Source of the DNA: Escherichia coli
Lineage (GTDB): Bacteria; Pseudomonadota; Gammaproteobacteria; Enterobacterales; Enterobacteriaceae
Length of the DNA stretch: 64,000 nucleotides
Assembly: GCF_046105845.1 (NCBI RefSeq)
Contig: NZ_CP151004.1
Strand: one strand, 5' to 3'
Made by a program: the position numbers and the translations under genes. This document shows positions 1 to 16,336 of this stretch, piece by piece (within the stretch, counting starts at the first letter, position 1; the number at the start of each line of letters is the position of its first letter). The notes beneath the pieces were generated by a model. It did not search any database, had not been told where the DNA came from, and worked only from the letters and a program-made list of their open reading frames with translations.

Positions 1-621
1 AAACCACTCTTCCCAGCCAGTAATACGGGTACTTTGATGCAGAAGTGGTAACTCTGTAAGCAGTTCTGCCACTGACAGTTTTTGATCGGACATTGTAAGC
101 AAACTGCCGCTGCATACCGGCAAAATCTCCTCTTCAAAGAGATATTCTACTTCCGCCCAGGGCGCGCAAAAATTTTCGCGCATAATGACAGCATCGTACT
201 CCCGATTAAGAAAATCGCCGTTATTAGCTAAAGAGTGAATATTAACAATAATATCGGAATGTAACTTTGTGAATTCATGTAAATTTGGGATTAACCAGTG
301 GGTACTAAACGTAGGATTCACGGCAAGTTCAATAACCTTAACCGTAGGCTGCCAGGTCATAATGGTATTGGTATCGCGTTCCAGCTTATTTAATGTTTCT
401 TTTACTATCCCCAGGTAATACTTCCCTGCATCATTAAGAAAAATACGTTTTTTAGAGTGTGAAAATAACGGAGTATGTAAAAATTCCTCCAGCGCACTCA
501 CTTGTCTGAATACTGCACTTTGGGTCAACGCTAACTCCTCTGCCGCTCTGGTATAACTTTCATGACGTGCGACGACCTCAAAAGTCACCAGCAGCTCCGT
601 TTTAGGTATTTTTCCTCGCAT
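1..621 (-). CDS. LysR-family transcriptional regulator, 3'-truncated by the window edge (about 207 N-terminal residues present)
   Basis: Not in the ORF track because it is incomplete. Reverse-strand ATG at 619-621 opens a frame translating MRGKIPKTELLVTFEVVARHESYTRAAEELALTQSAVFRQVSALEEFL..., with a typical LysR N-terminal winged-HTH followed by a co-inducer-domain-like region. Family assignment by eye. Confidence 0.7.
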   Translation of the reverse strand, partial: MRGKIPKTELLVTFEVVARHESYTRAAEELALTQSAVFRQVSALEEFLHTPLFSHSKKRIFLNDAGKYYLGIVKETLNKLERDTNTIMTWQPTVKVIELAVNPTFSTHWLIPNLHEFTKLHSDIIVNIHSLANNGDFLNREYDAVIMRENFCAPWAEVEYLFEEEILPVCSGSLLTMSDQKLSVAELLTELPLLHQSTRITGWEEWF

Positions 622-1185
622 AATGCCGTCCCTTAAAAATAGTTTAAACCATCAAAAATACATTACTTATTACGAAGTAATGGTAACCAAAGCAGCAATA
701 AATAATTTATAAGAATCATGATTGACATTTATAACCCAGTAAGCCTGGCGTGACAAATATCTTAATCAGATAATAATAATCCGAAAAGCACAGCGCCTTT
801 CGAATTATCCGGAATCACATTAAGTGAAAATTATTAAATTGATATCATTTATCATATCTGTGGATATTATGATAAACAATCAACAAAGATTTTATTTTTG
901 ATTTATAGCATATCCCTCTAAGAATTTTTGCGATGCTGCAATATCCGGGGTAAAGACCCGATCCTGGCTGACAAATGGCACGACTTGACGATAAGCGGTG
1001 AACATCGCTTTTGTTGATTTACTTAACGCTACGGTCAAACGCTGGGAAGCCAGTGCATCAGGTAACGATTCGAAATTCGCCGTCGTTCTTATTCGTGGCT
1101 TGCGGTCGGTTGCGGCAATCCACAGTGGCTGTGGTCATGCAGTCAAGCCAGCGGTCAGATTTCGACCGTGGTTAACATTTAAGGC

Positions 1186-1211
1186 ATAAAAAAGGCCATC
1201 ATATGATGGCC
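1186..1211 (-). terminator. Rho-independent terminator downstream of sucD
   Basis: Perfect hairpin GGCCATCATATGATGGCC (1194-1211) followed on the minus strand by a U-run (A-run 1188-1193 on plus). Confidence 0.75.
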
Positions 1212-1286
1212 AACCATGTCGAAACCGACAGCCCTTCGCCATTCCTGTAGAGGGAAGCGGCGAGGGCTATTTCTTATTACAGATAT
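1186..1286 (-). ncRNA. sdhX: Candidate SdhX (RybD) sRNA, the sucD 3'UTR ending at the sucD terminator
   Basis: Positional: in E. coli the sucD 3'UTR is processed into the sRNA SdhX. The interval between the sucD stop and the terminator is about 100 nt. Sequence identity was not checked. Confidence 0.45.
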
Positions 1287-2156: not shown

Positions 2157-3322
2157 TATTTCCCCTCCACTGCGGCAACAACCTGCTGAGCTGCATCCGT
2201 CAGACCTTTTGCTGCAATAATATTCAGGCCGCTGTCAGCCAGTTTCTTCGCGCCGAGTTCGGCGTTGTTACCTTCCAGACGTACCACGACCGGTACGTTA
2301 ACACCCACTTCCGCTACCGCGCCGATGATACCGTCAGCGATCAGGTCGCAACGAACGATACCGCCGAAGATGTTAACCAGAACGGCTTTCACTTTGTCGT
2401 CAGAGAGGATGATTTTGAACGCTTCGGTTACACGTTCTTTGGTTGCGCCGCCGCCAACGTCAAGGAAGTTAGCTGGTTCGCCGCCGTGCAGTTTAACGAT
2501 GTCCATCGTACCCATCGCCAGACCTGCGCCGTTAACCATACAACCGATGTTACCGTCCAGCGCAACGTAGTTCAGTTCCCACTGTGCAGCCTGTGCTTCA
2601 CGTGGATCTTCCTGCGACTGGTCACGCATTTCGCGCAGATCAGGCTGGCGGAACAGTGCGTTGCCATCAGCGCCCAGTTTGCCGTCGAGGCAAATCAGAT
2701 CGCCCTGTTTGGTGATGACCAGCGGGTTGATTTCGATCAGCGCCAGGTCGCGCTCCAGGAAAATGGTCGCCAGGCCCATGAAGATTTTGGTGAACTGCTG
2801 AACCAGTTTACCTTCCAGACCCAGTTTGAACGCCAGCTCGCGTCCCTGATACGGCATCGGGCCAGTCAGCGGATCAAGCGCAACTTTGTGGATCAGGTGC
2901 GGAGTTTCTTCCGCCACTTTTTCGATTTCCACGCCGCCTTCGGTGGAGGCCATAAAGACCACACGACGGGAACTACGGTCAACAACGGCACCGAGATACA
3001 GCTCTTTAGCGATATCGGTCGCTGCTTCAACCAGAATCTGGTTAACCGGTTGGCCATTGGCATCTGTTTGATACGTTACCAGACGCTTGCCCAGCCAGTT
3101 TTCTGCAAAAGCACGGATGTCTTCTTTGCTGTTTACAACTTTCACACCGCCCGCTTTACCGCGGCCACCAGCGTGAACCTGACATTTCACTACCCACGGA
3201 CCGGCACCGATTTTTGAAGCGGCTTCTTCTGCTTCGCGCGGAGTAGTACAGGCATAACCCACCGGTGCTGGTAAGCCATAGCGGGCAAAAAGTTGTTTTG
3301 CCTGATATTCATGTAAGTTCAT
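2156..3322 (-). CDS. sucC: Succinyl-CoA synthetase beta subunit
   Basis: 388-aa [42 protein letters not shown]... (ATP-grasp). Confidence 0.97.
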
Positions 3323-3415: not shown

Positions 3416-4633
3416 CTACACGTCCAGCAGCAGACGCGTCGGATCTTCCAGCAACTCTTTGATCGTTACCAGGAAGCCCACGGATTCGCGACCATCGATC
3501 AGACGGTGATCGTAGGACAGCGCCAGGTACATCATCGGCAGGATCTCAACCTGACCATTCACCGCCATCGGACGATCTTTGATAGCGTGCATACCCAGAA
3601 TTGCGCTCTGCGGCGGGTTGATGATAGGCGTTGACATCAGGGAACCGAACACACCACCGTTGGTGATGGTGAAGTTACCACCGGTCAGATCTTCAACCGT
3701 CAGCTTGCCGTCACGGCCTTTAACTGCCAGCTCTTTGATTTTCTTCTCGATATCTGCCATGCCTAGGGTATCGACATCACGCAGTACCGGCGTCACCAGG
3801 CCGCGCGGCGTAGAAACCGCCATGCTGACGTCGAAATAGTTGTGGTAAACCACATCATCGCCGTCGATAGACGCGTTCACTTCCGGGTAACGTTTCAGGG
3901 CTTCAACCACCGCTTTCACGTAGAAGGACATAAAGCCCAGACGAATACCGTGACGTTTTTCAAACGCTTCACCGTACTGCTTACGCAGATCCATAATCGG
4001 CTTCATGTTGACTTCGTTGAACGTGGTCAGCATGGCGGTGGAGTTTTTCGCTTCCAGCAGACGCTCTGCCACACGCTTACGCAGGCGAGTCATCGGGACA
4101 CGTTTTTCGCTACGTGCAGCCAGAGCCGGTTGCGCCACCGGAGCAGCCGCTGCCGGAGCAGACTCTTTCGCCGGGGCTTTCGCCAGATGTTTTTCCACAT
4201 CTTCACGAGTCAGACGACCACCCACACCGGTGCCTTTAATGGCGCTGGCGTCGAGGTTGTGTTCAGCCAGCATGCGGCGGATCGCCGGGCTTAACGCATC
4301 GTTGTTTTGCTCTTCCAGAGACGCCTGCTGGCGTTGCGCCGGAGTGGACGCTTTCTCTTCAGATTTGGCGCTGGTTTCTTTACCCGCGCTGTTGCCTTCA
4401 CGCAGGCGACCAAGGATTTGACGAGACGTTACCGTTGTACCTTCATCTTCCAGAACCGCATCCAGAATGCCGTCTGCTGATGCCGGTACTTCCAGTACCA
4501 CTTTGTCAGTTTCGATTTCTACCAGCACTTCATCACGTACGACTGCGTCGCCGGGTTTTTTATGCCAGGTTGCGACGGTGGCATCGGCTACGGATTCAGG
4601 CAGGTCAGGGACCAGAATATCTACGCTACTCAT
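3416..4633 (-). CDS. sucB: 2-oxoglutarate dehydrogenase E2, dihydrolipoyllysine-residue succinyltransferase
   Basis: 405-aa ORF with N-terminal lipoyl domain ([12 protein letters not shown]), Ala/Pro linker and C-terminal acyltransferase core (DHRLIDG). Confidence 0.97.
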
Positions 4634-4647
4634 TGTGTATCCTTTAT

Positions 4648-7449
4648 TTATTCGACGTTCAGCGCGTCATTAACCAGATCTTGTTGCTGTTTCTGGTGAA
4701 CGGACATATACCCTACCGCCGGAGAGGCGGAGGCCGGGCGGCCTGCATAACGCAGAGAAGCCCCAAACGGAATCACTTCACGGAAATGATGCTGGCTGCA
4801 GTACCATGCGCCCTGGTTGAGCGGCTCTTCCTGGCACCAGACAAAATCCTTGACGTGAGCAAACTGCTGCAACACTTCCTGCATCGCTTTATGCGGGAAC
4901 GGGTAGAGTTGCTCGATACGCACAATGGCGACATCGTGTTGATTGTTCTTACGACGTTGTTCCAGCAGGTCGTAATAAACCTTACCAGAACACATCACTA
5001 CACGCTTAACGCCCTTCGGATCAAGCTCGTCGATTTCACCGATGGCTGGCAGGAAGGTGCCGTTCGCCAGTTCTTCGAGGCTGGAAACCGCCAGCGGATG
5101 ACGCAGCAGGGATTTCGGCGACATCACGACCAGCGGACGACGCATCCCGCGCAGCGCCTGACGACGCAGCATGTGGTAAACCTGTGCCGGGGTAGACGGT
5201 ACGCACACCTGCATGTTTTGCTCAGCGCAAAGTTGCAGATAACGTTCCAGACGCGCGGAGGAGTGCTCCGGCCCCTGCCCTTCGTAACCGTGCGGCAGCA
5301 ACATCACCAGACCACACATCCGGCCCCATTTCTGTTCGCCAGAGGAGATGAACTGGTCGATAACCACCTGAGCACCGTTAGCGAAGTCACCGAACTGTGC
5401 TTCCCAGATAGTCAGAGTGCGTGGTTCTGCGGTGGCATAACCGTATTCAAACGCCAGCACGGCTTCTTCTGACAGTACGGAGTCCCAGACACGAAACGCG
5501 CCCTGACCGTTATGGATGTGTTGCAGCGGCGTGTAAGTGGAACCGTTAGACTGGTTGTGGATCACCGCGTGGCGGTGGAAGAAGGTACCGCGACCGGAGT
5601 CTTCACCCGACAGGCGAACCGGAATGCCTTCGTCAACCAGCGTGGCGTAAGCGAGGTTTTCCGCGCCGCCCCAGTCGAACAGTTTCTCACCAGCTGCCAT
5701 CGCCTGGCGATCGCCATAAATCTTGGCAACGCGAGACTGCATTTCAACTGCTTCCGGCACCGTGCTGATGCGTTTAGCCAGTTCCTGCAGGCGCTTCATC
5801 TCAACTTTGTTCGGGTACTCTTCGTCCCATTCGTGGTTGAGGTACGGCGACCAGGTGAAAGAGTGCATGTTCATCGGACGCCACTCTGCCACTACGCAAT
5901 CGCCAGCATCCAGCGCATCGCGGTACAGGTTAACCATCTCGGTGGCATCTTCGAGCGTCGCCACTTTTTCTTGCTCCAGCTTGTCAGCGTAGATTTTGCG
6001 CGGCGTCGGATGTTTTTTGATTTTCTGATACATCAGCGGCTGAGTTGCGCTCGGCTCGTCGGCTTCGTTATGGCCATGACGGCGGTAGCACACCAGGTCG
6101 ATGAAGACATCACGTTTAAAGGTGTTACGGAAATCGAGCGCCAGACGGGTCACAAAGGCAACGGCTTCCGGATCATCCGCGTTAACGTGGAAAATCGGTG
6201 CCTGAACCATCTTACCGATATCAGTACAGTACGGCGTCGAACGGGCATCCAGCGGGTTAGAGGTGGTGAAGCCAACCTGGTTGTTGATAACGATACGTAC
6301 CGTACCGCCAACTTCATAACCACGCGCTTTCGACATGTTCAGGGTTTCCTGAACCACGCCCTGCCCGGTCACTGCGGCGTCACCATGAATGGTGATTGGC
6401 AGCACTTTGTTGCTGCTCGGCTCATCAAGTCTGTCCAGACGGGCACGAACAGAACCGATAACGACCGGGCTTACAATCTCAAGGTGAGACGGGTTAAACG
6501 CCAGCGCCAGGTGCACCAGGCCGCCATCGGTCTGGAAGTCAGACGAGAAGCCCATGTGGTATTTCACGTCGCCCGTGCCGAGGTGTTCTTTATGTTTACC
6601 GGCAAACTCGTCGAACAAGTCTTGCGGTTTTTTACCCAGCACGTTCACCAGCACGTTCAGACGGCCACGGTGCGCCATCCCGAGAACCACTTCGCGGGTG
6701 CCGCTGTTGCCAGCGTGGCGGATCATCTCTTTAAGCATCGGGATTAACGCGTCACCGCCTTCCAGCGAGAAGCGTTTTGCGCCAGGGAATTTTGCGCCGA
6801 GGTAACGTTCAAGGCCTTCAGCGGCGGTCAGTTCGCTTAAGAAGCGTTTTTTCTCTTCGCTATTGAAAGTCGCGCGACCAGACTCGATACGCTGTTGGAT
6901 CCAGCGTTTTTCTTCGGTGCTGGTAATATGCATATACTCGGCACCAATCGGGCCGCAGTAGGTTTGCTTGAGGGCTTCCAGCAGCTCGCCGAGTTTCATG
7001 GTTTCTTTGCCGCTGGCAAATGAACCGACGTTGAAGGTCTCCTGGAAGTCTGCTTCGGTCAGATCGTGGAAAGACGGATCCAGATCGGCCACTTTATCTT
7101 GCTGCCACAGTCCCAGCGGATCGAGATTCGCATGCTGGTGACCACGGAAGCGGTATGCGTTAATGAGCTGCAGGACTTTAACCTGCTTCACATTGGTGTC
7201 AGGGTCGGAGATCGTTGAAGAGTAACGTGAAGCGTCTTTCGCCAGGCGGCGGAAATATTCACGCGTTTGAGAGTGGAATTGATCCGGTTTGACTCCCGTA
7301 CCAGGTAACTGCTGGAACGTCGAACGCCAGTTAGCGTCAACCGAGTCAGGATCGGTTAAGAAGTCTTCATAGAGCTGTTCTATCCAGCTCTGGTTTGCGC
7401 CAGAGAGGTAAGAAGAGTCCAACCAGGCTTTCAAAGCGCTGTTCTGCAT
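4648..7449 (-). CDS. sucA: 2-oxoglutarate dehydrogenase E1 component
   Basis: 933-aa [41 protein letters not shown]...; ThDP-dependent E1. Confidence 0.97.
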
Positions 7450-7616
7450 CGTGATCCCTTAAGCATCTTTTTTATGCTTACTTCGCCGTGGATACTACCA
7501 CGCACAGTGATGTGCGTGCCGGGGTTCACTTGCGAGCTCTTGTCTACGTAGTGGCTCGCGAAGGAACCTTTAAAAACTGTCTTAGTGTCAGGGGCAGTTT
7601 TTAAAGATTTCCTGAA

Positions 7617-7640
7617 TAGCCGGGGGATTTCCCCGGCATC
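7617..7640. terminator. Hairpin at the sdhB 3' end (possible partial terminator or attenuator between the sdh and suc transcripts)
   Basis: GCCGGGGgatttCCCCGGC inverted repeat at 7619-7637 immediately after the sdhB stop; only a weak U-run follows on the minus strand. Confidence 0.4.
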
Positions 7641-7649
7641 AACATTTAA

Positions 7650-8366
7650 TTACGCATTACGTTGCAACAACATCGACTTGATATGGCCGATGGCGCGCGT
7701 CGGGTTCAGCCCCTTCGGACATACACTGACGCAGTTCATGATGCTGTGACAGCGGAATACACTGAATGCATCGCTCAAACCGTCGAGGCGGCTGTCAGTC
7801 TCGGTATCACGGCTATCGATCAGGAAACGATATGCCGCTAACAAGCCTGCCGGGCCGATAAACTTATCGGGATTCCACCAGAAAGACGGACAAGAGGTTG
7901 AACAACATGCGCAGAGAATACATTCATACAGCCCGTCGAGTTTTTCGCGCTGCTCTGGCATCTGTAAATGCTCGCGAGCTGGCGGATTTTGTCCATTATT
8001 CAACAGGTAAGGCTTAATTTTCTCATATTGCGCATAGAATTGTCCCATGTCTACCACCAAATCGCGGATCACCGGTAAACCTGGCAGCGGGCGAATCACA
8101 ATCTTCTTGCCCGGCTGGTTGAGTGCCGAAATCGGGGTAATACAGGCCAGACCATTCTTGCCGTTCATGTTCAGACCGTCGGAACCGCACACACCTTCAC
8201 GGCAGGAGCGACGGAACGACAGGCTGGGATCTTTCTCTTTCAGCTGGATAAGCGCATCCAGCAGCATCATGTCACGACCTTCTTCCGCTTCCAGGGTGTA
8301 ATCCTGCATACGCGGAGCATCATCAACATCCGGGTTATAGCGATAAATTGAAAACTCGAGTCTCAT
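7650..8366 (-). CDS. sdhB: Succinate dehydrogenase iron-sulfur subunit
   Basis: 238-aa ORF MRLEFSIYRYNPDVDDAPRMQDYTLEAEEGRDMMLLDALIQLKEKDPSLSFRRSCREGVCGSDG...; Cys clusters for the 2Fe-2S, 4Fe-4S and 3Fe-4S centres. Confidence 0.97.
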   Translation of the reverse strand: MRLEFSIYRYNPDVDDAPRMQDYTLEAEEGRDMMLLDALIQLKEKDPSLSFRRSCREGVCGSDGLNMNGKNGLACITPISALNQPGKKIVIRPLPGLPVIRDLVVDMGQFYAQYEKIKPYLLNNGQNPPAREHLQMPEQREKLDGLYECILCACCSTSCPSFWWNPDKFIGPAGLLAAYRFLIDSRDTETDSRLDGLSDAFSVFRCHSIMNCVSVCPKGLNPTRAIGHIKSMLLQRNA

Positions 8367-8381
8367 TTTCCTGTCTCCGCA

Positions 8382-10148
8382 TTAGTAAGTACGAATCTTC
8401 GGCGGGAATGCCGGGCGCAGTTTCGGTTCCATGTTGACGCTTCGGCGCGTCATGGATTCCGACTCTGGCAGATACAGGGAGTGGCACAGCCAGTTTTCAT
8501 CATCACGATCCGGGAAGTCGAAGCGGCTATGCGCGCCACGGCTTTCGGTACGGAAGTTGGCAGAAACAGCCGTTGCATACGCCGTTTCCATCAGGTTATC
8601 CAGTTCCAGGCACTCAACGCGCTGGGTGTTGAACTCGCTGGAAGTGTCATCCAGACGGGCATTTTTCAGACGCTCGCGGATCACTTTCAACTGCTCAAGC
8701 CCTTTCGCCATCGCATCACCTTCACGGAAGACCGAGAAGTTATGCTGCATACATTCTTGCAGCGCTTTACGAATCGCCACCGGATCTTCACCGTTACGAT
8801 TATTGTTCCAGCGGTTCAGACGATCCAGAGACGCTTCAACATCAGACTCGCTGGCATCGCGCAGTGCGCCCTGCTCGGCGATAGACTCTTGCAGATGCAG
8901 ACCTGCCGCACGACCAAAGACCACCAGGTCCAGCAGCGAGTTGCCGCCCAGACGGTTAGCGCCGTGTACCGATACACAAGCGATTTCACCAACGGCAAAC
9001 AGCCCCGGAACCACCACATCTTCGCCTTTCTCGTTCACAGTCAGCGCCTGACCGGTCACTTTGGTCGGAATACCGCCCATCATGTAGTGACAGGTTGGGA
9101 TAACCGGAATCGGCTCTTTCACCGGATCAACGTGAGCGAAGGTACGGGAGAGTTCCAGGATACCCGGCAGACGGGATTCGAGAACTTCTTTACCCAGGTG
9201 GTCAAGTTTCAGTTTTGCGTGTGGCCCCCACGGACCATCACAGCCGCGACCTTCACGGATTTCGATCATGATGGAACGCGCCACCACGTCACGGCCCGCC
9301 AGGTCTTTGGCGTTCGGCGCATAACGCTCCATAAAGCGTTCGCCATGTTTGTTCAGCAGATAACCGCCTTCACCACGGCAACCTTCGGTGACCAGTACGC
9401 CCGCTCCTGCAATGCCGGTCGGGTGGAACTGCCACATTTCCATATCCTGTACTGGTACGCCTGCACGGATAGCCATGCCGACGCCGTCGCCAGTGTTAAT
9501 GTGGGCGTTGGTGGTGGACTGATAAATACGCCCTGCCCCGCCAGTCGCCAGCACGGTAGCGCGGGCTTTGAAATAAACCACTTCACCAGTTTCGATGCAC
9601 AGTGCGGTACAACCGACCACCGCGCCATCGGCGTTTTTCACCAGATCCAGCGCATACCATTCGGAGAAAATAGTGGTGTGGTTTTTCAGGTTCTGCTGAT
9701 AAAGGGTGTGCAACAGTGCGTGACCGGTACGGTCAGCTGCCGCCGCAGTGCGTGCCGCCTGCTCGCCGCCGAAGTTTTTCGACTGGCCGCCAAACGGACG
9801 TTGATAGATACGACCATCATCAAGGCGCGAGAACGGCAGGCCCATGTGTTCGAGCTCCAGAATCGCTTCCGGCCCGGTTTTACACATATATTCAATCGCG
9901 TCCTGGTCACCGATATAGTCCGAACCTTTTACGGTGTCGTACATATGCCATTCCCAGTTATCTTCATGGGTATTACCCAGCGCAACGGTAATGCCGCCTT
10001 GCGCAGAAACGGTATGGGAACGGGTCGGGAAGACTTTAGAGAGCAGCGCACAGGTCTGACCGCTCTGGGAAATTTGCAGCGCCGCGCGCATACCTGCGCC
10101 ACCGGCACCAATCACAACTGCATCAAATTCTCTGACTGGCAATTTCAT
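8382..10148 (-). CDS. sdhA: Succinate dehydrogenase flavoprotein subunit
   Basis: The track ORF (8382..10160) begins [23 protein letters not shown]...; start trimmed to the ATG giving MKLPVREF (588 aa), overlapping the sdhD stop by 1 nt. FAD-binding GxGxxG present. Confidence 0.95.
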
Positions 10149-10495
10149 CACACACCCCACACCACAACGAATCCATAAATCACGTAAACCACCAGTGCAA
10201 CGACAATCACCAGTTGCAGCATCAGGCGCAAAGCCAGCGGTTTAACGTAGTCGGTCAACACCTGCCACATGCCGATCCAGGCATGGATCAAGATAGAAAA
10301 CAGCGCCAGCAGGGTGAACACTTTGGTGAACGCAGAGGCGAAGAAACCGATCCAGACTTCATATGTCAGCTCGCCACTGGTAGCGAAAAAACCGACCATA
10401 TAAATGATGTAGAGCGTCAGGACGATAGCGGTAGCGCGAACGAGGATAAAATCATGTACGCCATTGCGTCCTAATGCGGAGGCGTTGCTTACCAT
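10148..10495 (-). CDS. sdhD: Succinate dehydrogenase hydrophobic membrane anchor subunit
   Basis: 115-aa [40 protein letters not shown]... Confidence 0.95.
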
Positions 10496-10878
10496 ACGAG
10501 GACTCCTGCGAGAAGTGAAAGCACGACAGTAATAACAAAGGAGATTTTGGCGGAGCGTTTACCCGCTTCGAATGTTTCTTCCAGATAGCCAAAATCCATC
10601 ATCATGTGGCGAATACCTACGACGACGTGATACGCCAGAGCGGTAAGGATGCCCCACATGATAAATTTGACGAAGAAGCTGCCCATAATCGCGGAAGCTT
10701 GCTCGAAACCTTCAGGGGAAGAGAGGCTGGTACCCAGAAGCCACAGCAGGATGCCCACTGCAACAAAGGTGATCACACCGGAAACGCGATGGAGAATGGA
10801 CGCTATCGCCGTGATGGGGAACCGGATGGTCTGTAGGTCCAGATTAACAGGTCTTTGTTTTTTCACATTTCTTATCAT
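10489..10878 (-). CDS. sdhC: Succinate dehydrogenase cytochrome b556 subunit
   Basis: The track ORF runs to 10893 ([15 protein letters not shown]...); start set at [34 protein letters not shown] (129 aa). Confidence 0.93.
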
Positions 10879-10893
10879 GAATAACGCCCACAT

Positions 10894-11586
10894 GCTGTTC
10901 TTATTATTCCCTGGGGACTACGGGCACAGAGGTTAACTTTCTGTTACCTGGAGACGTCGGGATTTCCTTCCTCCGGTCTGCTTGCGGGTCAGACAGCGTC
11001 CTTTCTATAACTGCGCGTCATGCAAAACACTGCTTCCAGATGCGAAAACGACACGTTACAACGCTGGGTGGCTCGGGATTGCAGGGTGTTCCGGAGACCT
11101 GGCGGCAGTATAGGCTGTTCACAAAATCATTACAATTAACCTACATATAGTTTGTCGGGTTTTATCCTGAACAGTGATCCAGGTCACGATAACAACATTT
11201 ATTTAATTTTTAATCATCTAATTTGACAATCATTCAACAAAGTTGTTACAAACATTACCAGGAAAAGCATATAATGCGTAAAAGTTATGAAGTCGGTATT
11301 TCACCTAAGATTAACTTATGTAACAGTGTGGAAGTATTGACCAATTCATTCGGGACAGTTATTAGTGGTAAACAAGTTTAATAATTCGGATTGCTAAGTA
11401 CTTGATTCGCCATTTATTCGTCATCAATGGATCCTTTACCTGCAAGCGCCCAGAGCTCTGTACCCAGGTTTTCCCCTCTTTCACAGAGCGGCGAGCCAAA
11501 TAACAAACGGGTAAAGCCAGGTTGATGTGCGAAGGCAAATTTAAGTTCCGGCAGTCTTACGCAATAAGGCGCTAAGGAGACCTTAA
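10894..11586. promoter_or_regulatory. Divergent gltA / sdhCDAB promoter region
   Basis: A 690-bp AT-rich gene-free interval between divergent gltA (+) and sdhC (-), which is the known arrangement in E. coli. Individual binding sites were not resolved. Confidence 0.6.
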
Positions 11587-12870
11587 ATGGCTGATACAAA
11601 AGCAAAACTCACCCTCAACGGGGACACAGCTGTTGAACTGGATGTGCTGAAAGGCACGCTGGGTCAAGATGTTATTGATATCCGTACTCTCGGTTCAAAA
11701 GGTGTGTTCACCTTTGACCCAGGCTTCACTTCAACCGCATCCTGCGAATCTAAAATTACTTTTATTGATGGTGATGAAGGTATTTTGCTGCACCGCGGTT
11801 TCCCGATCGATCAGCTGGCGACCGATTCTAACTACCTGGAAGTTTGTTACATCCTGCTGAATGGTGAAAAACCGACTCAGGAACAGTATGACGAATTTAA
11901 AACTACGGTGACCCGTCATACCATGATCCACGAGCAGATTACCCGTCTGTTCCATGCTTTCCGTCGCGACTCGCATCCAATGGCAGTCATGTGTGGTATT
12001 ACCGGCGCGCTGGCGGCGTTCTATCACGACTCGCTGGATGTTAACAATCCTCGTCATCGTGAAATTGCCGCGTTCCGCCTGCTGTCGAAAATGCCGACCA
12101 TGGCCGCGATGTGTTACAAGTATTCCATTGGTCAGCCATTTGTTTACCCGCGCAACGATCTCTCCTATGCCGGTAACTTCCTGAATATGATGTTCTCCAC
12201 GCCGTGCGAACCGTATGAAGTTAATCCGATTCTGGAACGTGCTATGGACCGTATTCTGATCCTGCACGCTGACCATGAACAGAACGCCTCTACCTCCACC
12301 GTGCGTACCGCTGGCTCTTCGGGGGCGAACCCGTTTGCCTGTATCGCAGCAGGTATTGCTTCACTGTGGGGACCTGCGCACGGTGGTGCTAACGAAGCGG
12401 CGCTGAAAATGCTGGAAGAAATCAGCTCCGTTAAACACATTCCGGAATTTGTTCGTCGTGCGAAAGATAAAAATGACTCTTTCCGCCTGATGGGCTTCGG
12501 TCACCGCGTATACAAAAATTACGACCCGCGCGCCACCGTAATGCGTGAAACCTGCCATGAAGTGCTGAAAGAGCTGGGCACCAAAGATGACCTGCTGGAA
12601 GTGGCTATGGAGCTGGAAAACATCGCGCTGAACGACCCGTACTTTATCGAGAAGAAACTCTATCCGAACGTCGATTTCTACTCTGGTATCATCCTGAAAG
12701 CGATGGGTATTCCGTCTTCTATGTTCACCGTGATCTTCGCTATGGCACGCACCGTTGGCTGGATCGCCCACTGGAGCGAAATGCACAGTGACGGTATGAA
12801 GATTGCCCGTCCGCGTCAACTGTATACAGGATATGAAAAACGCGACTTTAAAAGCGACATCAAGCGTTAA
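11587..12870 (+). CDS. gltA: Citrate synthase
   Basis: 427-aa [50 protein letters not shown]..., with catalytic His/Asp region ([14 protein letters not shown]). Confidence 0.97.
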
Positions 12871-12900
12871 TGGTTGATTGCTAAGCCGTTTACTTTCCGG

Positions 12901-12930
12901 ACCCGCCTTTAATAGAGCGGGTTCTTTTTT
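12901..12930 (+). terminator. Rho-independent terminator of gltA
   Basis: ACCCGC-ctttaataga-GCGGGT hairpin followed by TCTTTTTT. Confidence 0.75.
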
Positions 12931-13259
12931 ATATGGCTGAACATAATAAATTGTAAAAATTAAACCAGATGCAAATACCCATTAATAAGGTGAAAAAATG
13001 TGACAAGTCACATACTGAGCAGAATGATAAGTTTATTTTTATACTTTCATGCCGGTAGCATTGTTAACCCAATGAAAATCATGCATATCCATCCCACCCC
13101 ATCCTTCATCTCATTAAACAATAAATTTATGCACTCAATTATTCCATTCTTTATATAACAAGCTTTTTAATATTGTTAAATAAAACCAAATACATTCAAC
13201 TGTCAGTTAATATATTCTTGCCTCGCAACACTCTATCTCATTATTTAAAGGACTCAGCT

Positions 13260-13826
13260 ATGTTTAAAGGACAAAAAACATTGGCCGCACTGGCCGTATC
13301 TCTGCTGTTCACTGCACCTGTTTATGCGGCTGATGAAGGATCCGGTGAAATTCACTTTAAAGGTGAAGTTATTGAAGCACCGTGTGAAATACATCAGGAT
13401 GATATTGATAAAGAAGTTGAACTCGGTCAGGTGACCACCAGCCACATTAATCAGTCGCATCACAGCGATGCCGTTGCTGTCGACCTGCGCTTAGTCAACT
13501 GCGATCTGGAAAACTCCAACAACGGTTCCGGCGGCAAGATTTCTAAAGTTGCAGTCACCTTTGACAGCTCAGCGAAAACCACCGGCGCAGATCCGATTCT
13601 CAACAACACCAGCACGGGTGAAGCGACCGGTGTCGGCGTGCGTTTAATGAATAAAGATCAAAGCAATATCGTTTTAGGCACCGCTACTCCAGATATCGAC
13701 CTGGCACCAACCTCCAGCGAACAAACGTTAAATTTCTTTGCGTGGATGGAACAAATTGATCAGGCTACGCCCGTAACACCAGGCGCAGTTACGGCGAATG
13801 CGACCTACGTACTGGATTATAAATAA
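13260..13826 (+). CDS. ybgD: Fimbrial major subunit-like protein (chaperone-usher pathway)
   Basis: Start chosen at MFKGQKTLAALAVSLLFTAPVYA (signal peptide) with an AGGA RBS upstream; 188 aa; C-terminal YVLDYK donor-strand-like tail. The track ORF begins further upstream at 13173. Confidence 0.88.
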   Translation: MFKGQKTLAALAVSLLFTAPVYAADEGSGEIHFKGEVIEAPCEIHQDDIDKEVELGQVTTSHINQSHHSDAVAVDLRLVNCDLENSNNGSGGKISKVAVTFDSSAKTTGADPILNNTSTGEATGVGVRLMNKDQSNIVLGTATPDIDLAPTSSEQTLNFFAWMEQIDQATPVTPGAVTANATYVLDYK

Positions 13827-13876
13827 GTATCACTTTGGCGGCGTCATCGCCGCCTTTCTTCAAATATTTATCAGGT

Positions 13877-16336
13877 ATGGACACCGTGAATATTTATCGA
13901 CTCTCTTTTATATCCTGCCTGGTCATGGCGATACCTTCCGCATTGGCGGTCGAATTCAACCTGAATGTCCTCGATAAATCGATGCGAGATCGCATTGATA
14001 TTTCATTATTAAAGGAAAAAGGGGGCATTGCTCCCGGTGAATATTTTGTTAGCGTTGCAGTAAATAACAACCAAATCAGTAACGGACAAAAAATTGACTG
14101 GAAAAAGAACGGTGACCAAACCATTCCGTGTATTAATGATTTACTGGTAGATAAATTTGGTTTAAAACCTGAAGTTCGTCAGTCGTTACCACGGTTAAAC
14201 CAGTGCGTCGATTTTAGCTCCCGGCCTGAAATTCTCTTCATTTTTGATCAGGCTAGCCAGCAACTGAATATCACTATTCCACAAGCCTGGCTGGCGTGGC
14301 ACTCAGATAACTGGACTCCCCCCTCAACATGGAAAGAAGGTGTCGCCGGCGTCCTGATGGATTACAACCTGTTTGCAAGCAGCTACCGCCCACAGGATGG
14401 TAGCAACAGCACTAACCTGAACGCCTATGGAACAGCCGGAATTAACGCCGGGGCATGGCGCTTACGCAGTGATTACCAGCTTAATAAGACCGATAGCGAA
14501 GATAACCATGACCAGTCAGGCGGAATATCGCGCACCTATCTTTTTCGTCCATTACCGCAATTAGGCTCTAAGTTAACCCTCGGCGAAACCGATTTCAGTT
14601 CCAATATTTTCGACGGCTTTTCTTATACCGGCGCGGCACTGGCAAGTGACGATCGGATGTTACCGTGGGAGCTACGCGGCTACGCCCCACAAATCAGCGG
14701 CATTGCACAAACCAACGCCACCGTCACCGTGAGTCACTCAGGGCGAGTTATTTACCAGAAAAAAGTCCCACCAGGTCCGTTTATCATTGATGACCTTAAT
14801 CAGTCCGTCCAGGGTACGTTGGATGTCAAAGTGACGGAAGAAGATGGTCGGGTGAACAATTTCCAGGTTTCGGCAGCATCGACGCCCTTCCTGACTCGCC
14901 AGGGACAGGTTCGCTATAAATTGGCCGCGGGTCAGCCACGGCCCTCCATGTCACATCAAACTGAAAATGAAACCTTTTTTAGCAATGAAGTTTCCTGGGG
15001 GATGCTGTCAAATACCTCGCTGTACGGCGGCCTGCTGATTTCGGGTGACGACTACCATTCTGCCGCAATGGGTATCGGGCAAAATATGCTCTGGCTTGGT
15101 GCATTGTCGTTTGATGTCACCTGGGCCAGTAGTCAGTTTGATACTCAGCAGGACGAGCGGGGCTTAAGTTACCGCTTTAATTACAGCAAACAAGTGGATG
15201 CCACTAACAGCACGATTTCGCTCGCCGCTTATCGCTTTTCAGATCGTCATTTTCACAGCTACGCCAACTATCTGGATCACAAATACAACGACAACGATGC
15301 GCAGGACGAAAAACAGACGATCAGCTTATCCGTGGGGCAACCGATTACCCCACTGAACCTCAATCTGTACGCCAACCTGCTGCATCAAACCTGGTGGAAT
15401 GCAGACGCCTCCACGACCGCCAACATCACGGCGGGTTTTAATGTTGATATTGGTAACTGGAGAGATATCTCGATCTCGACGTCATTCAATACAACCCATT
15501 ACGAAGATAAAGATCGCGACAATCAGATTTACCTGTCGATTTCGCTTCCCTTCGGTAACGGGGGGCGGGTCGGTTATGACATGCAAAACAGTAGTCAAAG
15601 CACCACGCACCGCATGTCGTGGAATGATACGTTGGATGAACGTAATAGCTGGGGCATGTCTACCGGACTGCAATCCGACCGTCCGGATAATGGAGCCCAG
15701 GTGAGCGGTAACTATCAGCACCTGAGTTCAGCGGGTGAGTGGGATATTTCTGGTACCTATGCCGCCAATGATTACAGTTCCGTCAGCAGCAGCTGGAGCG
15801 GTTCTTTCACGGCAACTCAATATGGTGCGGCGTTCCATCGTCGCAGCTCCACCAATGAACCACGTCTGATGGTCAGTACCGATGGCGTGGCAGATATTCC
15901 GGTTCAGGGCCATCTCGACTACACCAACCATTTTGGCATTGCGGTGGTGCCGTTGATTTCCAGTTATCAGCCTTCCACCGTGGCGGTGAACATGAATGAC
16001 TTACCCAACGGCGTAACAGTGGCAGAAAACGTTATCAAAGAAACGTGGATTGAAGGCGCGATAGGTTACAAATCACTGGCTTCCCGTTCCGGTAAAGACG
16101 TTAACGTCATCATTCGCAACGCCAGCGGTCAGTTCCCTCCCCTCGGTGCGGATATCCGCCAGGATGATAGCAGCATTAGCGTGGGGATGGTTGGCGAGGA
16201 AGGACACGCCTGGTTAAGTGGAGTCTCTGAAAATCAACAATTTACCGTGGTCTGGGGTGATAGCCAGCGTTGCTCGATCCATCTTCCTGAACATATGGAA
16301 GACACCGCAAATCGCCTGATTTTACCTTGTCATTAA
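13877..16336 (+). CDS. ybgQ: Fimbrial outer-membrane usher protein
   Basis: Large ORF (track: 13835..16336, 833 aa) with an usher-like N-terminal signal peptide MDTVNIYRLSFISCLVMAIPSALA. The exact start is uncertain (TTG 13835, ATG 13877 or GTG 13886). Confidence 0.88.
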   Translation: MDTVNIYRLSFISCLVMAIPSALAVEFNLNVLDKSMRDRIDISLLKEKGGIAPGEYFVSVAVNNNQISNGQKIDWKKNGDQTIPCINDLLVDKFGLKPEVRQSLPRLNQCVDFSSRPEILFIFDQASQQLNITIPQAWLAWHSDNWTPPSTWKEGVAGVLMDYNLFASSYRPQDGSNSTNLNAYGTAGINAGAWRLRSDYQLNKTDSEDNHDQSGGISRTYLFRPLPQLGSKLTLGETDFSSNIFDGFSYTGAALASDDRMLPWELRGYAPQISGIAQTNATVTVSHSGRVIYQKKVPPGPFIIDDLNQSVQGTLDVKVTEEDGRVNNFQVSAASTPFLTRQGQVRYKLAAGQPRPSMSHQTENETFFSNEVSWGMLSNTSLYGGLLISGDDYHSAAMGIGQNMLWLGALSFDVTWASSQFDTQQDERGLSYRFNYSKQVDATNSTISLAAYRFSDRHFHSYANYLDHKYNDNDAQDEKQTISLSVGQPITPLNLNLYANLLHQTWWNADASTTANITAGFNVDIGNWRDISISTSFNTTHYEDKDRDNQIYLSISLPFGNGGRVGYDMQNSSQSTTHRMSWNDTLDERNSWGMSTGLQSDRPDNGAQVSGNYQHLSSAGEWDISGTYAANDYSSVSSSWSGSFTATQYGAAFHRRSSTNEPRLMVSTDGVADIPVQGHLDYTNHFGIAVVPLISSYQPSTVAVNMNDLPNGVTVAENVIKETWIEGAIGYKSLASRSGKDVNVIIRNASGQFPPLGADIRQDDSSISVGMVGEEGHAWLSGVSENQQFTVVWGDSQRCSIHLPEHMEDTANRLILPCH

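Follow-up and report, generated by a model that had tools for sequence, protein, structure and literature searches.

The window analysed here, 64,000 nucleotides of Escherichia coli DNA, carries sucABCD on its minus strand and, beyond the 3′ end of sucD and on the same strand, a gene for a LysR-type regulator (hereafter lysR) that leaves the window at its left end. The lysR reading frame starts with an ATG at 621–619 and is free of stops for 207 codons up to the window edge, positions 1–621 thus holding its N-terminal part. The gene sucD (1287–2156, from the ORF list and annotation) is followed by the small RNA sdhX, which lies in its 3′ UTR (1186–1286), is near-identical to sdhX of K-12 (3051–3151 of the K-12 locus L002) and ends in a terminator hairpin called at 1194–1211, both on the minus strand. 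A search of positions 1–1600 against Rfam, with E values up to 1, returned two chance-level matches and no sdhX family match. In the alignment, homology to K-12 stops just past the T-tract of this terminator, at about 1183, which makes sdhX the last sequence shared with that strain. The gap on the lysR side measures 568 bp and is AT-rich, with a GC content of 38%.

The complete regulator has 301 residues, as read at 14716–15621 of the 31-kb island locus L001, which comes from a genome 99.6% identical to the one studied. The window copy is about 99% identical to a 301-residue protein whose 90%-identity cluster comprises 1620 sequences. Its Pfam HTH_1 domain (PF00126), a winged helix-turn-helix, spans residues 9–67 inside the window and scores 64.7 bits against a cutoff of 26.6; the LysR_substrate domain (PF03466) spans residues 96–293 of the 301-residue orthologue with 98.7 bits, the window covering residues 1–207. 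The top NCBIfam model is that of the GcvA subfamily, with 221.5 bits, and the nearest solved structure is also GcvA (8y6u, E 7e-43). As the NCBIfam score falls below the cutoff of 288 bits, we class the regulator as a GcvA-like paralogue outside the GcvA equivalog. Its recognition helix is presumably TQSAVFRQV, with TQAAVSHQI as the GcvA counterpart.

This gene encodes the GcvA-like LysR-type regulator of an accessory island for glutamate fermentation (methylaspartate/mesaconate) that E. coli shares with related enterobacteria. The cluster itself lies outside the window, and the linkage of the regulator to glutamate mutase, methylaspartate ammonia-lyase, fumD and cobO was read in L001. The island comprises glmS-glmL-glmE, methylaspartate ammonia-lyase (mal), genes for AtuA, a DUF4387 protein and a glutamate/dicarboxylate symporter, the mesaconase gene fumD, and cobO; according to the annotation of L001, the regulator gene stands at its sucD-proximal end, convergent with cobO, and cydA follows beyond the island. 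A scan of species-representative genomes yielded 36 orthologous loci from at least 10 genera, in which the regulator is convergent with cobO-fumD and residues 1–40, the helix-turn-helix included, are invariant (36 of 36). The glutamate mutase, mal, fumD and cobO neighbours recur in Citrobacter, Salmonella arizonae, Yersinia and Yokenella. The Yersinia and Yokenella orthologues (64% and 57% identity, respectively) are divergently arranged, either from the operon that contains glmS or from an ABC-importer operon ahead of it, as is classical for LysR-type regulators. In Salmonella arizonae and Citrobacter, the upstream neighbour of lysR is instead a PocR/AraC-type regulator gene; tblastn with the Salmonella/Citrobacter gene found no remnant of it in the window, and this gene never belonged to the Escherichia arrangement. 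Of 5426 complete E. coli genomes, 980 (about 18%) have the lysR upstream region, O157:H7 among them.

The sequence between sdhX and lysR records how the two came to be adjacent. In K-12, mngR directly follows sdhX and is convergent with sucD. In E. coli strains that carry a hut operon here (hut+; represented by the 18-kb locus L056), the order is sucD, mngR-mngA-mngB, an RtcB-family gene on the opposite strand, hutU, a permease gene, hutD, hutI, hutG, hutH, lysR, then cobO and the rest of the island. Four remnants that are collinear with this order in blastn against L056 fill positions 892–1189 of the window. Two of them belong to hutH, which encodes a histidine ammonia-lyase of the HAL/PAL/TAL family, and lie on the minus strand: the 3′ end of the gene at 892–1029 (window 1029–1 matches L056 15644–16672), which continues unbroken into the intergenic region and then lysR, and an internal piece at 1024–1085 (window 1085–1024 matches L056 15240–15301). 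The other two, at 1089–1189 on the plus strand, derive from the RtcB-family gene (window 1145–1089 and 1184–1146 match L056 6099–6155 and 5887–5925, respectively) and retain its original stop codon at 1187–1189. Indeed, the window ORF at 998–1189 ends in AVRFRPWLTFKA, and an intact RtcB-like protein, found in locus L038, ends in AVRFRPWLTFKG; this short ORF (plus strand) and the one at 892–1038 (minus strand) are rtcB and hutH remnants. The adjacency of lysR to the sdhX terminator is thus explained by stacked deletions that removed mngR-mngA-mngB, most of the rtcB-like gene and the whole hut operon from hutU to hutH. What might be described as an island replacing mngRAB is a case of serial gene loss, and no gene was swapped for another, since the MngR and LysR regulators coexist about 15 kb apart in hut+ E. 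coli. The intact arrangement belongs to a minority class of 167 E. coli genomes in which the lysR upstream region is 80–90% identical to that of the window; 145 of these have an intact hutU with its promoter. About 3% of E. coli genomes have the hut operon physically linked with the island.

Several points of the initial annotation, made from the letters alone, are borne out by these comparisons. A LysR-type gene on the strand of sucD, running off the window, is what the reading frame and the HTH_1 and LysR_substrate domains establish, and the statement that mngR follows sucD in K-12 agrees with the K-12 locus. A pseudogene had been considered there as an alternative; given the stop-free frame and the match of about 99% to an intact 301-residue protein, the gene is an intact LysR-type regulator gene. 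Comparison of the region downstream of sucD across strains, also suggested there, distinguishes mngRAB in K-12, the hut+ order, and the deletion remnants of the window. The ORF list of the window likewise confirms that no divergent partner gene is visible, which is accounted for by the native upstream neighbour in Escherichia being the co-directional hutH, deleted in the genome of the window.

The remaining intergenic DNA upstream of lysR contains several elements. At 775–809 lies a strong hairpin with a 15-bp stem, more stable as minus-sense RNA (−21 kcal/mol, z −3.8) than in the plus sense (−10.8 kcal/mol) and kept in every Escherichia allele; it is probably the intrinsic terminator of the deleted hutH. 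Because this hairpin separates hutH from lysR, the lysR promoter must lie within about 622–775, some 155 bp. A scan for the sigma-70 consensus gave no minus-strand promoter upstream of lysR. A weak sigma-70-like candidate can be proposed at 706–734 on the minus strand, with TTATAA at 734–729, a spacing of 17 nt and TATAAA at 711–706; it was not called by the scan owing to a −10 hexamer that lacks the final T. All seven Escherichia sequences share the TTATAA of the −10 region without change. A Shine-Dalgarno-like AGGGA at 629–633 (minus strand), 7 nt upstream of the ATG, is conserved in the Escherichia alignment. Beside the terminator, at 758–772, stands a perfect 5-5-5 dyad, TATCT-taatc-AGATA, which reads TGTCT-GATTG-AGACA in the hut+ E. 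coli allele; both arms are changed with pairing kept, which suggests a small hairpin.

Within the same interval, at 661–682, lies the inverted repeat to which the initial annotation had drawn attention, CATTACTT-attacg-AAGTAATG. It is perfect, as had been claimed, with arms of 8 nt (661–668 and 675–682) and a 6-nt spacer, 40–61 bp upstream of the lysR ATG and within what would be the promoter or leader region of lysR. Among dinucleotide shuffles of the 139 bp in front of the ATG, 5% contain a perfect repeat whose arms measure 8 nt or more and whose spacer does not exceed 12 nt; for the whole 568-bp gap, the figure by equal criteria is 15%, and a second perfect inverted repeat is present in the gap at 848–876. 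By these shuffle rates, the palindrome is mildly unusual and not compelling. None of the three E. coli allele classes, nor E. whittamii, has a change in either arm, and the spacer there reads CGTAAT or AGCAAT. Two arm mismatches are found in Escherichia sp. E1V33, and two or three, depending on the register, in Escherichia sp. MOD1-EC7003, which also has a spacer shorter by 1 nt. In neither case do the changes restore pairing, and the palindrome is degraded in two of the four non-coli Escherichia lineages. It could be without function, a chance repeat in intergenic DNA of 30% GC that is kept within E. coli because the alleles diverged recently. Such a reading accords with the shuffle rates and the second repeat, with the decay of the palindrome in distant Escherichia lineages and its absence elsewhere, and with the intergenic alignment, where it is not the most conserved block. 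What it explains less well is that, between E. coli alleles about 13% diverged in this region, all 16 arm positions are conserved and the two substitutions present are confined to the spacer (chance about 0.065), one allele even lengthening the arms to 9+9. We find a functionless repeat credible without quite expecting it; given the conserved arms and varying spacer, the palindrome may have some function.

The function first proposed in the initial annotation was that of an autoregulatory LTTR box, in which a dimer of the regulator would bind the palindrome and repress lysR. The position suits such a role, in the approximately 155 bp from the hutH terminator hairpin to the lysR ATG that must contain the promoter, as do the perfection of a repeat reached by 5% of shuffles and the conserved arms around a varying spacer in the E. 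coli alleles and E. whittamii. There is also a precedent in GcvA, whose own promoter is overlaid by a site for autoregulation (PMC5002191), and the pentamers ATTAC and GTAAT of the palindrome match the ATTAG and CTAAT of GcvA boxes at four of five positions. The GcvA-type boxes are 15-bp dyads of 5-5-5 layout, ATTAG-n5-CTAAT, a form of T-N11-A (PMC5002191), with half-sites 5 bp apart, whereas the palindrome is a 22-bp structure of 8-6-8 layout with its pentamers 10 bp apart. The dyad axis of an 8-6-8 layout falls between base pairs, so that no symmetric T-N11-A pair is possible.

The distribution of the palindrome also speaks against this role. No copy was found within 400 nt upstream of the gene in any of the non-Escherichia loci, about 30 orthologous loci from at least nine genera: the best palindrome-like match in those 400 nt has 3–6 mismatches in the 16 arm positions in Citrobacter, Salmonella, Klebsiella, Enterobacter, Lelliottia, Pluralibacter, Raoultella, Buttiauxella and Trabulsiella, and the same nine genera show no alternative perfect 7-nt repeat within 150 nt upstream. 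As residues 1–40 of the regulator are identical in all loci, the cognate operator should look alike in all of them. The symmetry is moreover broken by the changes in the two Escherichia lineages, no similar site occurs upstream of glmS, hutU, gltP or fumD, no other copy within 3 mismatches exists in L001 or in the hut+ locus L056, and a divergent target promoter is lacking. The interpretation of the palindrome as an autoregulatory LTTR box is therefore not upheld, since the palindrome is absent outside Escherichia and variable within the genus, an outcome that the initial annotation itself had named as refuting, does not recur in the island and departs from the T-N11-A layout; on these comparisons of sequence, it is most probably not the box of the regulator, and we consider autoregulation through it quite improbable.

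The palindrome is then either a neutral, lineage-specific feature of AT-rich DNA or a site for some other factor. In the latter case, it would serve as the operator of a different DNA-binding protein, or as a leader RNA or DNA hairpin, gained in the Escherichia-specific hutH-lysR intergenic region and tying lysR expression to another signal. Its restriction to the Escherichia arrangement, in which lysR comes after the hut operon, and the conservation of its arms within E. coli are consistent with such a gain, and if the candidate promoter at 734–706 were real, the palindrome would span transcript positions of about +17 to +38, where a roadblock or a leader element might sit. However, neither the window nor the loci examined contain a second copy, the palindrome folds as RNA into a weak hairpin (−6.2 kcal/mol, z −1.4) that is no better than those of shuffled sequences, and the arm changes in other Escherichia break the pairing. 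By eye, it shows no resemblance to the consensus sites for CRP, FNR or TyrR. We regard a site for another factor as unlikely. HutC, ArgR and Nac were tried in the same manner, and like CRP, FNR and TyrR they fit the palindrome neither in sequence nor in spacing. The likelihoods given for the three readings of the palindrome were estimated one by one and need not add up to certainty.

A better candidate for the site of the regulator is found in front of glmS, a region that was compared with its counterparts from four further enterobacterial sources. About 125 bp upstream of the glmS ATG, in otherwise poorly alignable DNA, the 21-nt stretch TTTTGAAAATAGATCAATTGC is invariant in E. coli, in a sequence common to several Enterobacteriaceae, in Salmonella and in C. 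koseri (four genera), and about 20 nt downstream of it a conserved GACACT-like block could be a −10 element. The core of this element, TTGAA-AATAG-ATCAA (TTGAAAATAGATCAA), lies outside the window and is a 15-bp 5-5-5 dyad of T-N11-A form. CAAGATGTCCTGAAAATATATCAATTG or a close variant stands upstream of glmS in Yersinia, Budvicia and Morganella, and in Yokenella there are two copies, one ahead of glmS and the other in the divergent intergenic region that adjoins the regulator gene. With a 30-nt weight matrix built from nine glmS-type sites, the best hit comes from the divergent region between the Yersinia regulator gene and sumT and is reached by 1% of shuffles, and no significant match was obtained in the lysR upstream region of the window or upstream of gltP and fumD. 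The element may belong to an FNR-like protein rather than to the regulator. Morganella and Budvicia have no regulator orthologue within 10 kb of the element, nor one recognisable among the named homologues, which implies that a different and more widespread factor could own it, and the half-sites fit FNR; the spacing speaks against FNR, with 7 nt between TTGA and TCAA compared to 6 in the FNR site, one base too many. Binding of the regulator to the glmS-upstream element is, on the evidence of these alignments, a tentative proposal that falls slightly on the doubtful side.

A relative of the glmS core occurs in front of lysR itself. At 633–647, 12–26 nt upstream of the lysR ATG (A at 621), the dyad TTAAA-AATAG-TTTAA has the layout and centre of TTGAA-AATAG-ATCAA and equals TTGAAAATAGATCAA at 12 of 15 positions, a level that 1.9% of shuffles reach. 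The 12-mer pattern AAAATAGNTNAA occurs in the 31 kb of L001 at 633–647 and at the glmS-upstream site alone, with 0.02 occurrences expected, and once in the 64-kb window. Its core, TTAAACTATTTTT, is the sole lysR-upstream block to be conserved and common to most of the other genera, and the 5-5-5 layout of both dyads is that of the GcvA boxes, ATTAG-n5-CTAAT. The resemblance to the glmS site was noticed after the fact and is confined to the 15-nt core, as the dyad fails the full 30-nt weight matrix, and the Enterobacter, Lelliottia and Pluralibacter loci have it in diverged form or lack it. The dyad is thus a candidate LysR-type box or another conserved promoter or leader element; it appears to be a better, if unproven, candidate for the site of the regulator than the palindrome at 661–682, while binding of the regulator to it as well is doubtful.

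Taken together, these observations suggest the following explanation, which we hold with moderate confidence: the gene encodes a GcvA-like regulator of the island, its present position results from the deletion history, a conserved element lies upstream of glmS, and the palindrome is most probably not the box. The regulator would sense a metabolite of the pathway and activate the glmS operon through the conserved element of about 30 bp that lies about 125 bp upstream of glmS, and it may repress itself through the related dyad at 633–647. A more far-reaching proposal joins the hut operon, which lacks hutC and leads from histidine to glutamate, and the B12-dependent cluster, which leads from glutamate to mesaconate, into one contiguous histidine-to-citramalate fermentation island; the regulator would be its single switch, acting through the glmS-upstream element, and the Escherichia-only palindrome an extra operator gained when lysR came to lie behind hutH. 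This is very unlikely in our estimation; if true, an inducer derived from histidine or urocanate would explain the lack of known expression conditions for the cluster.

The gene, the island and the family are already known and annotated, and in this respect the finding is ordinary; for the palindrome there is no earlier description. Its significance is limited, as it mainly confirms a known strain-variable region next to sucD, and the new points beyond the gene and the island arose on the side: how deletions shaped the sucD-lysR gap, the linkage of hut to the island, and the candidate operator. Kronen and Berg (PMC4682846) found no conditions under which the cluster is expressed, and a hypothesis on the regulator and its operator therefore has some practical value. 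For work on this silent pathway, the hut linkage suggests inducers to try, and the glmS-upstream dyad TTGAA-AATAG-ATCAA, with its weaker relative at 633–647, offers a candidate operator. Literature searches gave nothing relevant on the inferred locus tags ECs0755 and Z0885 or on any connection in E. coli between hut and a LysR regulator.

Among known systems, GcvA, the LysR-type activator of glycine cleavage in E. coli, is the best-matching characterised relative of the regulator over its full length, although the genomic context and the presumed effector are not the same. MngR (FarR), a GntR-family repressor, occupies the same chromosomal slot in K-12, directly past the sdhX terminator, but it comes from an unrelated family, is encoded on the opposite strand and has mngAB as its targets. 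The closest counterpart is the putative LysR-family protein, named LTTR, that Kronen and Berg described in 2015 with the enterobacterial glutamate-fermentation cluster (PLoS One, PMC4682846, Fig 5), a study in which fumD is ECs0757 of E. coli O157:H7 Sakai; for the LTTR, it gives neither a binding site, an inducer nor a promoter, and it mentions neither the hut operon nor the deletion scars. The LTTR is the same gene: in the stretch from sucD to cydA, it stands beside cobO and fumD where the glmS-glmL-glmE-mal cluster ends. In O157:H7, the protein is intact at 301 residues, the region upstream of its gene is 98.7% identical to that of the window, and in the gene itself there is no difference between the regulator described here and the LTTR of Kronen and Berg.

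The interval between sucD and lysR, the GcvA-like regulator gene of the glutamate-fermentation island, is filled by a four-piece deletion scar made up of two rtcB and two hutH fragments, as seen by comparison of window positions 892–1189 with positions 5880–15790 of the hut-positive locus of E. coli 2015C-4136CT1. It follows from this composition that island-positive strains lack mngRAB through serial deletions and not through replacement by insertion. A sigma-70-like promoter, GTGACA-16 nt-AATAAT (750–777, plus strand, 10/12), points away from lysR and into the scar, with no intact gene downstream of it. Next to the scar, the sdhX small RNA (1186–1286, minus strand) is nearly identical to that of K-12, with one base different, in the terminator loop; an Rfam search at E values up to 1 gave no sdhX match.

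Several dyad elements lie between the end of hutH and lysR. A perfect inverted repeat, TTTATCATA-N11-TATGATAAA (848–876), directly follows the hutH stop codon, and Escherichia sp. MOD1-EC7003 retains a perfect 9-nt repeat at the equivalent position, TTATCACAT-N6-ATGTGATAA, with other arms and a shorter spacer. A strong conserved hairpin (775–809, minus strand, -21 kcal/mol) probably serves as the terminator of hutH. It is adjoined by a small 5-5-5 dyad, TATCT-N5-AGATA (758–772), which reads TGTCT-N5-AGACA in the hut-positive allele, so that both arms are changed and pairing is preserved.

In 2015C-4136CT1, the hut operon comprises hutU, a permease gene, hutD, hutI, hutG, and hutH (8041–15781) and is devoid of hutC. 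Such a hutC-less operon lies immediately 5' of lysR in about 145–167 of 5426 E. coli genomes, where histidine-to-glutamate catabolism thus adjoins glutamate fermentation; one paper on the glutamate-fermentation cluster (PMC4682846) makes no mention of this operon. Upstream of hutU (7775–7980), the motif ATATTCA/TGAATAT occurs five times, and its copies include the perfect inverted repeats TAGTGAATAT-N13-ATATTCACTA and TATATTCA-tag-TGAATATA. They resemble an array of operators for some regulator.

Within the island, the region 5' of glmS contains a conserved ~30-nt element with the core TTGAA-AATAG-ATCAATTG, present in at least eight genera: it lies outside the window at 4497–4526 of the near-identical E. 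coli locus L001, and in further loci at ~9790 (L049), ~9695 (L051), and both ~5040 and ~9895 (L052). It is followed, about 20 nt downstream, by a conserved -10-like block, and the two together resemble an activator-dependent promoter. In Yokenella, a second copy of the element adjoins the regulator gene.

For the lysR product, a number of E. coli and Shigella records (P0194, P0123, and P0126) give shortened forms, including forms of 189 residues (99% identity, 180 member sequences) and 279 residues (92% identity), and in certain lineages lysR may be undergoing decay. In Salmonella arizonae and Citrobacter, lysR is directly preceded by the gene for an additional regulator that has a PocR sensory domain together with an AraC-type helix-turn-helix (L036, 8739–9641; L015, 7914–8828); this gene is missing from Escherichia.
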